A stretch of DNA of 12,938 bases from Candidatus Hodarchaeota archaeon. GTDB lineage: Archaea > Asgardarchaeota > Heimdallarchaeia > Hodarchaeales > Hodarchaeaceae. The translations under genes and the position numbers were made by a program. The DNA lies in contig JAEOTC010000204.1 of the NCBI GenBank assembly GCA_016840035.1, forward strand, positions 1 through 12,938. The letters run 5' to 3'. This document shows positions 8,240-9,706 of the stretch, piece after piece. The notes below the pieces were generated by a model. That model was not told where the DNA came from and did no database searches. It worked only from the letters and a program-made list of their open reading frames with translations. Every line of letters starts with the position of its first letter. Position 1 is the stretch's first letter.

Positions 8240-9706
8240 TCAGCTTGCTTGGTATTTTGCCAGTGCAAGCCCATTTGTTAATTCGCCTTTCTGATAACTC
8301 CTAACAAGAATATTCTGAATTTTATCGTTTATTGCATATTCTGGTTCTCCCTGTAACATCACGCGATGTACTAAATCCAAAGAAACCTTAAGGTCATTCC
8401 TTGCAATTTCTTCATGTCCACCATGACAGATTGCAACTCCTCTTAGTTGGACTTGATTTGGGCCTCTCTTTGTAACAAACACACACTCTTTATCCCCTGC
8501 TTTAAGATGATCTGGGGAATGACCTATCAAATCCGAGCTCATAGACTGTATAGCTGAGAATAATCCTGTATAAAGACAGACTTCCTGTCCAGCAGGGCGA
8601 TGACTGGCAAATAAGGGAAGCCCCCCATCATCAAAAACATAAACCTCGGACTCAGAGAAAATTTTTCCTAATATATGGAATCTCATCTCTTCATCATTTT
8701 CTTTGGAGGGTTTATCTTGAGAATTAGAGAAACTCAGTTCGTTTGATGTATCTTCGGTCTCATTGTCGAAATCTACCAAGAGAAATGGATTTGCTACAGG
8801 AAATATCTCATTAATTGGATGAAGATCTGTAAGTATTGCGAACGTTTTAAAGCCTTCAAGGTTAGGCTCGACAGAATTAGAAAAATGTATATTGAATTCT
8901 TTTCCAAAAGTTGCAGCAAACTTAGAGGTTATTTTATTCATTGTTTGCAAACTGATAGAACTTCCCGATATGACTGAAATGAAGATAGCCTCTAACCTTT
9001 CTAATTCTTCAGGTAATGTTTGTACTAATCTTTCTCCGATTTGATTAACCAGATCTTCCAAAACATCATCTAAGAGCTCTGATTGTGAAATACCATAGAA
9101 AATACACTCAGATTTTCCGAAAATTTGGAGTAAATCTGAAAATGATATCCCGAGTCCAGAAGTGGGTGATAATACTGATAAAATGCTTTCTAGGAATATT
9201 GTGAGTTTCCTATGATTCTCATCATCTGATAAATCGAAGTGAAAGTAACACTCACCTAAATTCTTCCTCTGATCTATTGGAAGGCCTCTCCCAGTATCAA
9301 TAAATATCGGGATTGTGCCTCTATATTCAATAGAAGCAACTATGGTTCCTAGAATTCTTAATATTCCTTGTTCAGAGGAATTAAACAAAAAAAAGAGGAA
9401 TGAAGAATTCAACAAATTGTGAACCTCGGCAATTGTTGAATCGGAATCAAAGACAACTACCTGGTCTGCGTATTCACTGAGTTCAGAAGACGAGCTAAGT
9501 AGCAAAACTGGAATTCTCTTCTCATTATTTCTTCCCAAAATTTTTTGTATGAGTTCGAGTTCGGGTTTCATATTATCTCCAAGACAAACGACTTTACCTC
9601 TTGGACGAAAATAATCCATCATTGTTGTATTACTTATAGACGAACTCAAGGTAAATTTCACTTTGAATCTGTTCGATTTTTGAAAAACGAGATTGGGAAT
9701 TGTCAT
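8240..9706 (-). CDS. Degenerate FtsZ/tubulin-fold protein fused to a C-terminal longin/roadblock-like domain (probable start ATG 9622 or 9619)
   Basis: aa ~165-294 follow the FtsZ H7/T7/C-terminal domain ([13 protein letters not shown]…FYG; [14 protein letters not shown]…[20 protein letters not shown]). Acidic linker at aa 312-340. aa ~351-470 read [12 protein letters not shown]…[18 protein letters not shown]…L..GD…VF, typical of Asgard longin-like domains. Confidence 0.7.
   Translation of the reverse strand: [488 protein letters not shown]

Follow-up and report, generated by a model that had tools for sequence, protein, structure and literature searches.

A single-copy protein of Hodarchaeales predicted to join an FtsZ-like core without GTPase motifs to a roadblock/longin-type domain

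In MglB, Ragulator and Mon1-Ccz1, the roadblock/longin fold dimerizes and serves as a docking site for small GTPases, and the T7/C-terminal ("bottom") side of FtsZ is bound by SulA and MciZ. Here we describe a gene that brings these two kinds of module together in one polypeptide. It lies on the reverse strand of a 12,938-nucleotide stretch of a Candidatus Hodarchaeota archaeon genome (assembly GCA_016840035.1, contig JAEOTC010000204.1, positions 1 to 12,938), which we call the window throughout. An earlier reading made from the sequence alone, hereafter the original prediction, had described its product as an FtsZ-fold protein without GTPase motifs fused to a longin-like domain. Both kinds of module are known, and a pseudo-GTPase of the FtsZ superfamily joined to a roadblock/longin domain is a combination that we have not found described; our search of the open-access literature returned no account of an FtsZ-longin or FtsZ-roadblock fusion. 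Residues are numbered according to P0002, the database copy of the protein (459 amino acids, 100% identical to the product of the window).

In the AlphaFold2 model, residues ~1 to 270 form a complete but shortened two-domain FtsZ core, which places this part of the protein in the FtsZ/tubulin superfamily at the level of the fold. The model, built with the family alignment, has a predicted local distance difference test score (pLDDT) of 75 overall and ~90 in the FtsZ C-terminal domain, and its strands (S), helices (H) and loops (T) follow one another in the order S1-H1-S2-S3-H3-S4-H4-S5-H5-S6-H7-T7-H8-S7-H9-S8-H10-S9-S10. Foldseek returned FtsZ for all of the top 50 matches to the core model (Expect value [E] 2e-11, ~310 columns), and VIA-align superimposed model residues 7 to 266 on Staphylococcus aureus FtsZ 13 to 315 with a Z score of 19.6 and a root mean square deviation (rmsd) of 3.1 Å over 246 residues. 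The same two-domain core is seen in the FtsZ structures 5mn5, 1w58 and 2q1x and in Odinarchaeota FtsZ1 (9v7v), at Z scores of 17 to 19.6 over ~250 residues.

Sequence profiles still recognize the T7 loop and the C-terminal domain as FtsZ. A search of all PDB sequences with the family profile gave 26 matches, exclusively to FtsZ, the best of which (E 1.4e-3) spans this region, and hhalign against an Asgard FtsZ alignment laid family residues 145 to 271 onto FtsZ 235 to 361 with a probability of 88% and an E of 3e-6; the FtsZ-type C-terminal domain stops at residue ~266. The Pfam FtsZ_C model matches the window protein below its cut-off (12.5 bits, E 0.19; the cut-off of PF12327 is 27 bits) and gives sub-threshold matches in 26 of 59 family members (best E 4e-4). 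The Tubulin model PF00091 matched none of the 59 members, and the window protein not even at an E of 10. The nearest ESM-Atlas clusters all carry FtsZ names, with scores of 0.88 to 0.89 that derive from language-model features and serve as a lead only. A search of the PDB with the single sequence yielded only chance matches, and a global hhalign of the N-terminal subdomain to FtsZ gave a meaningless alignment (probability 34%). Because the sequence profile cannot align this subdomain, its homology to FtsZ is read from structure only.

The N-terminal subdomain has six strands, the first of which is GKVVCL (residues 8 to 13), and is without H2, H6 and a proper T3 loop; with ~130 amino acids compared with ~180 in FtsZ, it is about 50 residues shorter. 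The original prediction had claimed an FtsZ fold that includes the C-terminal domain and has a shortened N-terminal domain, and both claims are borne out. The outcome that it named as refuting, a bare Rossmann fold unrelated to FtsZ, is not what the model shows, since H7, T7 and the FtsZ C-terminal domain are all present.

This core departs from FtsZ in the nucleotide pocket, where the GGGTG[ST]G signature and the T1 glycine loop are replaced. Column counts over the 59 family members show that the replacements are themselves conserved. A 23-residue segment of the window protein spans S4, the T4 loop, H4 and S5, and within it the T4 equivalent FNSSE.G has the Asn in 56, the two Ser in 59 and 54 and the Glu in 49 of the 59 members. 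In the S1/T1 equivalent RPRGK[IV]VC[IV]G[DE], the Pro, both Gly and the Lys are invariant, and the T5 equivalent IPIFIDTG is almost so (I103, P104, I107, D108 and G110, each in at least 54 members). Together with the absence of a Pfam Tubulin match, the FNSSE.G loop at T4 upholds the claimed loss of the GGGTG signature. Since the nucleotide loops are replaced by other conserved sequences, FtsZ-like binding and hydrolysis of guanosine triphosphate (GTP) by the window protein appear very unlikely. At T7, where FtsZ has NxDxxD, the family reads G.G[VI]SFS[DN], with Ser in place of the first Asp; GLGISFSD (residues 155 to 162) stands opposite the FtsZ motif LINLDFAD. The last Asp of T7 had been described as retained. 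It is found in just 32 of the 59 members, with Asn in 21, and is not a conserved catalytic residue.

FtsZ carries a C-terminal anchor peptide; the window protein has instead a folded domain, reached through a linker that is acidic and, as originally claimed, apparently disordered (residues 276 to 307, pLDDT below 50). Modeled alone, residues 308 to 445 fold as alpha-beta-beta-alpha-beta-beta-beta-alpha-alpha with a pLDDT of 83. All of the 27 Foldseek matches at E ≤ 1e-3 are to Mon1, MglB, roadblock proteins (including those of Asgard archaea) or LAMTOR. An exhaustive VIA search placed longin domain 1 (LD1) of Mon1 first (5ldd_D; Z 12.8, rmsd 1.9 Å, 94 residues, 18% identity), with Asgard and bacterial roadblock proteins, MglB and LAMTOR at Z ~10 (range to 9.5) and classical longins at Z ~8. 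We conclude from these models that the domain belongs to the roadblock/longin superfamily at fold level, as had been proposed; the subfamily is not settled. The domain shares the alpha/beta sandwich of MglB, LAMTOR/Ragulator, Asgard roadblock proteins and Mon1-Ccz1 LD1, in which helices flank a five-stranded sheet with a beta-beta-alpha-beta-beta-beta core, and its topology is a hybrid, with the N-terminal helix of a roadblock and the two C-terminal helices of a longin domain. The likeness to Mon1 is confined to the fold of LD1: the tri-longin RabGEF subunits Mon1, Fuz and HPS1 have three consecutive longin domains and form the Rab site through an LD1-LD1 heterodimer, whereas the window protein has one such domain. 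Among 37 sequences of the domain, one matched Fuz_longin_1 (E 0.0019), none matched Robl_LC7 and no Pfam roadblock/longin model reached threshold; a profile search of the PDB with the domain found only dynein roadblock chains, below threshold (E 0.23).

The gene is real and narrowly distributed. A word-indexed search recovered 68 homologues with 44 to 85% identity, nearly all full length and none with a Pfam domain; those with a named source all come from Hodarchaeales, "Heimdallarchaeota" or Asgard metagenome-assembled genomes (MAGs). When 1.84 billion cluster representatives were searched exhaustively with the profile, only two full-length 50% clusters, some fragments and a few distant relatives were returned. 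In 400 genomes of the phylum, a profile of the C-terminal domain matched at E < 1e-57 in 22 of 22 genomes of the GTDB genus and at E 1e-38 to 1e-42 in both genomes of a sister family of the same order, and elsewhere gave just weak, generic roadblock/longin matches. Each of the 24 species genomes of the order has a single copy. Within the genus, the order GrpE-HSP70-DnaJ, radical SAM-ArcS, FtsZ-like/longin gene, CA109-like gene is kept around copies that are only 45 to 51% identical, and it is also seen in closed genomes. In one genome of the sister family (G079), the highly divergent protein P0083 is encoded after HSP70-DnaJ-radical SAM-ArcS, in the same syntenic slot, and is therefore a positional orthologue. 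Across the whole order it is a core gene that is present once per genome and keeps its syntenic place. The fusion is not peculiar to this contig, and a misassembly is excluded because the fusion recurs in 68 independent homologues in a conserved gene order.

Where does such a protein come from? The exhaustive search also found P0075, a bona fide FtsZ of 572 amino acids with matches to Tubulin (3.9e-40) and FtsZ_C (1.5e-19) and the same C-terminal domain as the window protein. Five relatives (P0089 to P0093), 67 to 91% identical to it in that domain, are encoded in MAGs labelled Hodarchaeales or Asgard and are annotated as FtsZ. These proteins (571 to 577 amino acids) follow the same plan of core, linker and C-terminal domain, and in that last domain are ~33 to 35% identical to the window protein (E 1e-14). 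Unlike the window protein, they keep all GTP-binding and T7 motifs (in P0075, GVGGGGNN, GGGTGTG and NLDYSD), and their FtsZ core is 50% identical to the canonical FtsZ of the genome studied here. We know of no paper describing them. Neither the 24 species genomes of the order nor the 400 phylum genomes searched yielded an intact fusion; a search of the GTDB species genomes with the C-terminal domain of P0075 likewise found nothing, the P0075-type MAGs not being among the representatives. The C-terminal domain also occurs in further, degenerate FtsZ-like proteins (P0078, P0080 and P0081), in a stand-alone protein (P0077) and in a partial protein (P0079). The simplest history that we can infer is one in which FtsZ was fused once to a roadblock/longin domain and several descendants later lost catalysis. 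Whether the FtsZ part of the fusion came from FtsZ1 or FtsZ2 is a point on which we make no claim, the tree having unresolved forks and long branches.

Two side observations concern these relatives. The -AS end of the window protein recurs, as PAS, NAS or GAS, in P0075, P0081, P0083 and the intact FtsZ-longin proteins and divergent lineages. In addition, an unrelated metagenome contig encodes an FtsZ-like protein of 265 to 270 amino acids (P0086, of the P0084 cluster; L092 5001-5798) with an intact T7 motif (NVDYAD), an FtsZ_C domain and degenerate T1 and T4 loops (GIGKQG and VSGSSPQD). Its gene is flanked by a GGGtGRT-family gene and an MreB/FtsA-like gene, and from its motifs it looks like another pseudo-FtsZ lineage.

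The genes of the intact fusions differ from the window gene in their setting, as they lie directly downstream of a small-GTPase gene. All three loci available show the arrangement TFIIB (reverse strand), an Arf/Ras/RagA-like GTPase of 184 to 190 amino acids, FtsZ-longin and EamA (all forward). The genome studied here has an orthologue of this GTPase, 65% identical (G000:C213:2189-2749; L099), ~1 kb from a gene for a Roadblock/LC7 protein (L099 473-1204). We considered whether the synteny extends to this genome and rejected the idea: the best orthologue is on another contig and near neither the ftsZ gene nor the FtsZ-like/longin gene.

Which partners could the protein meet in its own cell? The genome is 87% complete and contains one canonical FtsZ of 428 amino acids (contig C28), encoded by its one PF00091 gene, and 61 matches to the Ras family. 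Other genomes of the genus have tubulin-like PF00091 paralogues, one or two each (445 to 470 amino acids, E 1e-17 to 1e-20; for example G074:C52:281948-282433, G071:C6:80090-80575 and G066:C1:694430-694915). One of them is often located on the same contig as the FtsZ-like/longin gene, ~50 kb away; at its 87% completeness, the genome studied here yielded none. We modeled residues 1 to 280 of the window protein with residues 40 to 365 of the genome's own FtsZ and GTP, each protein with its family alignment. The complex scored 0.67, compared with 0.23 for the best of three controls; a score of 0.67 is reached by 58 of 80 solved complexes and 2 of 110 mismatched pairs, a calibration that is rough here, where own alignments and a ligand were used. 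Three runs had at least 84% of the contacts in common, and the pLDDT of the partner was at least 80. The modeled interface is the canonical longitudinal one, with the T7 face of the window protein on the GTP face of FtsZ, and agrees in its geometry with the original prediction. It involves T1 (63), T2 (86 to 93), T3 (101 to 115), T5 (176 to 183) and T6/H7 (209 to 221) of FtsZ, and the T7 loop (152 to 165) and loops of the C-terminal domain (221 to 244 and 268 to 273) of the window protein.

On this basis we tentatively favor, with a probability of about 40%, a protein that binds the end of an FtsZ filament or an FtsZ monomer through its T7 face and is coupled to a small GTPase through its longin domain. 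The protein would descend from a GTPase-intact FtsZ-longin fusion that subsequently lost catalysis. With its T7/C-terminal ("bottom") face it would occupy the GTP-bearing ("top") face of canonical FtsZ, either of a monomer or of a filament end. Because the dead module would have no nucleotide to present to the next subunit, its role would be that of an end-binder, cap or anchor and not that of a subunit of the polymer. The growing end of an FtsZ filament is the "bottom" end (PMC12583498), and therefore the window protein would sit on the opposite, nucleotide-exposing end. A dimerizing longin domain could then tie this FtsZ end to a Ras/Arf/Rag-like small GTPase and so place FtsZ assembly or anchoring under small-GTPase control; for Asgard archaea, PMC10933270 reviews both the roadblock/longin proteins and the small GTPases. 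As a comparison of possible action only, the window protein would, like MciZ and SulA, block subunit addition at one face of FtsZ; their folds are unrelated, and the window protein is modeled on the nucleotide ("top") side instead.

Several observations weigh against this proposal. Conservation at the predicted interface does not exceed that in the remainder of the FtsZ-like part (permutation P of 0.25). The originally suggested adaptor acting through the T7/C-terminal face is thus only partly supported, by the control-checked model. The success of the complex model may itself be a recall of solved FtsZ-FtsZ longitudinal dimers and thus indicate likeness and not binding. The best-conserved loops of the FtsZ-like part are those of the degenerate pocket (RPRGK..C.G, FNSSE.G and IDTG), which hints at a different ligand or partner on the "top" face, and the T7 Asp is not conserved. 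In P0083 the N-terminal part is no longer linked to FtsZ by BLAST while the C-terminal domain is still recognizable; such drift fits poorly with a tightly constrained FtsZ-binding face. The other half of the proposal, a link to small GTPases, is favored by the fold of the C-terminal domain and by the gene adjacency in the sister lineages, and nothing in the window supports it directly: no small-GTPase, FtsZ or division gene is found anywhere in it. The three MAGs that show the adjacency are related and have the flanking TFIIB and EamA genes in common as well, so that it may be plain synteny.

The main rival is a protein that regulates or gathers small GTPases (as a guanine nucleotide exchange factor, GTPase-activating protein or scaffold) through its longin/roadblock domain, while the FtsZ-derived part no longer meets FtsZ and is an inert scaffold or a sensor of some other ligand or partner in its remodeled pocket. 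We regard this as somewhat unlikely. Conservation is far higher in the longin domain (0.80) than in the FtsZ-like part (0.61 to 0.68) or the linker (0.30), and the top structural match of this domain is the LD1 of Mon1, the longin domain of a Rab exchange factor; the near-invariant pocket loops combined with a variable T7 Asp, the ordinary conservation of the predicted FtsZ contacts and the divergence of P0083 point in the same direction. Against it stand the complete FtsZ core with H7/T7 and the C-terminal domain, kept at high model confidence in a family of 44 to 85% identity, and a complex with FtsZ that passes its controls. In the sister lineages, moreover, this domain is still joined to an active FtsZ, which argues that the original function involved FtsZ polymers. 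A protein that forms nucleotide-independent homo-oligomers or filaments, or co-assembles with the tubulin-like paralogues while its longin domain cross-links or anchors the product, would fit the conserved residues on both longitudinal faces (the pocket loops, and G.G.SF on the T7 side) and the presence of such paralogues beside FtsZ in the same genus. However, this genome has only one PF00091 gene, and known FtsZ and tubulin polymers require nucleotide at the interface, which makes self- or co-assembly improbable in our view. That the gene is merely a decaying FtsZ paralogue is hardly credible: the catalytic motifs are lost and the FtsZ-like part diverges fast between the families of the order, but the open reading frame (ORF) is intact and single copy in all 24 species genomes, the replacement motifs are strongly conserved, the longin domain is ~80% conserved and the model is confidently folded.

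The proposal of an FtsZ end-binder coupled to a GTPase has a more specific and rather doubtful form, in which the pseudo-FtsZ caps, anchors or nucleates the nucleotide-exposing end of FtsZ and its Mon1-LD1-like domain is recruited by a membrane-bound Ras/Arf/Rag-like GTPase. If true, this would be a prokaryotic forerunner of the GTPase-controlled coupling of cytoskeleton and membrane in eukaryotes, and the protein might also take on some of the anchoring done by SepF and FtsZ2 in other archaea. The Pfam SepF model has no match in the 24 genomes of the order and matches in 12 of 12 and 22 of 25 genomes of two sister families. With a Heimdall SepF profile, a conserved ORF of 110 to 140 amino acids is weakly matched (E 0.004 to 0.09) in 14 of 21 genomes of the genus, and by its sequence this ORF may encode a very divergent SepF. 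A third family, which lacks the pseudo-FtsZ, is likewise without a Pfam SepF match. Given the weak profile matches and the third family, the loss of SepF is not established, and substitution of the pseudo-FtsZ for a missing SepF/FtsZ2 module is retained only within the doubtful form described above.

The protein matters beyond this choice of mechanisms. It is universally kept in single copy and joins a module of the FtsZ/tubulin fold to the docking fold of the eukaryotic regulators of Rab, Rag and Arf; the fusion is thus a clonable handle on the pre-eukaryotic wiring of the cytoskeleton to small-GTPase signaling. The FtsZ/tubulin superfamily, moreover, gains in it a clear example of a pseudo-enzyme that can be compared with active FtsZ-longin relatives. 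In PMC12583498, some phylogenies (Eme et al. 2023, cited there) are said to place Hodarchaeales nearest to eukaryotes, and members of the order are reported, again through works cited there, as cultured, which would make localization and biochemistry feasible.

The coordinates of the features are collected in Table 1. The gene is contained in an ORF of 488 amino acids (8240 to 9706, reverse strand). The start proposed originally, at 9622, is a true Met codon, but the database homologues begin at the adjacent Met at 9619, as does P0002; a TTG ~10 codons further upstream would suit the longer N termini of more distant homologues.

Table 1. Features of the FtsZ-like/longin gene (window coordinates) and of related loci
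Feature	Coordinates	Strand	Remarks
FtsZ-like/longin fusion, coding sequence	8240..9622	-	stop codon 8240-8242; longest ORF to 9706
Shortened FtsZ-type N-terminal (Rossmann-like) subdomain, by model	9224..9619	-	residues 1-132; AlphaFold2 secondary structure, structural alignment to FtsZ from residue 7
NSSEQG loop at the position of FtsZ T4 GGGTG[ST]G	9365..9382	-	family consensus FNSSE.G
Core helix H7, T7-equivalent loop, H8	9110..9223	-	GLGISFSD at nucleotides 9134-9157, aligned to FtsZ LINLDFAD
FtsZ C-terminal domain equivalent (S7-H9-S8-H10-S9-S10)	8810..9109	-	residues 171-270; hhalign 88%, pLDDT ~90
Acidic linker, predicted disordered	8699..8794	-	residues 276-307; pLDDT 25-46; mean top-residue frequency 0.30
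Roadblock/longin-superfamily domain, by model	8285..8698	-	residues 308-445; pLDDT 83; conservation 0.80
C-terminal end [FY][HQ]AS (here YQAS)	8243..8254	-	A and S each in 58/59 members
Small-GTPase gene directly upstream of intact FtsZ-longin, same strand	L091 6620-7186; L093 5123-5695; L094 1969-2523		
Weakly SepF-matching ORF	L087 1474-1854; L088 1471-1842	-	Heimdall SepF profile

The window is AT-rich (GC content ~0.35), and the gene is monocistronic in it, divergent from the ArcS gene and convergent with the CA109-like gene; the window therefore offers no operon hint. The convergent neighbor (7583 to 8224, forward strand) encodes a protein of 213 amino acids that matches the Pfam family CA109-like (C1orf109-like ribosome biogenesis protein) above the cut-off, at E 6.3e-10; it is a homologue of a eukaryote-type adaptor of 60S maturation, and its position is kept in other genomes. 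On the other side lie an ArcS-type gene (9959 to 11866, forward; DUF5591, TGT_C2 and PUA) and, directly after it, a radical SAM gene (11871 to 12938, forward). The pair is syntenic in all relatives examined, and it looks like the archaeosine pair ArcS/RaSEA. Four further conserved neighbors are without a Pfam family at threshold: 280 to 972 (reverse, 230 amino acids), 1115 to 2281 (forward, 388 amino acids), 3503 to 4741 (forward, 412 amino acids) and 5186 to 7348 (reverse, 720 amino acids). The 412-residue protein has weak matches to HEAT_Nup120 and BatD (E ~1e-3), and a DUF5752 is encoded at 2998 to 3402.

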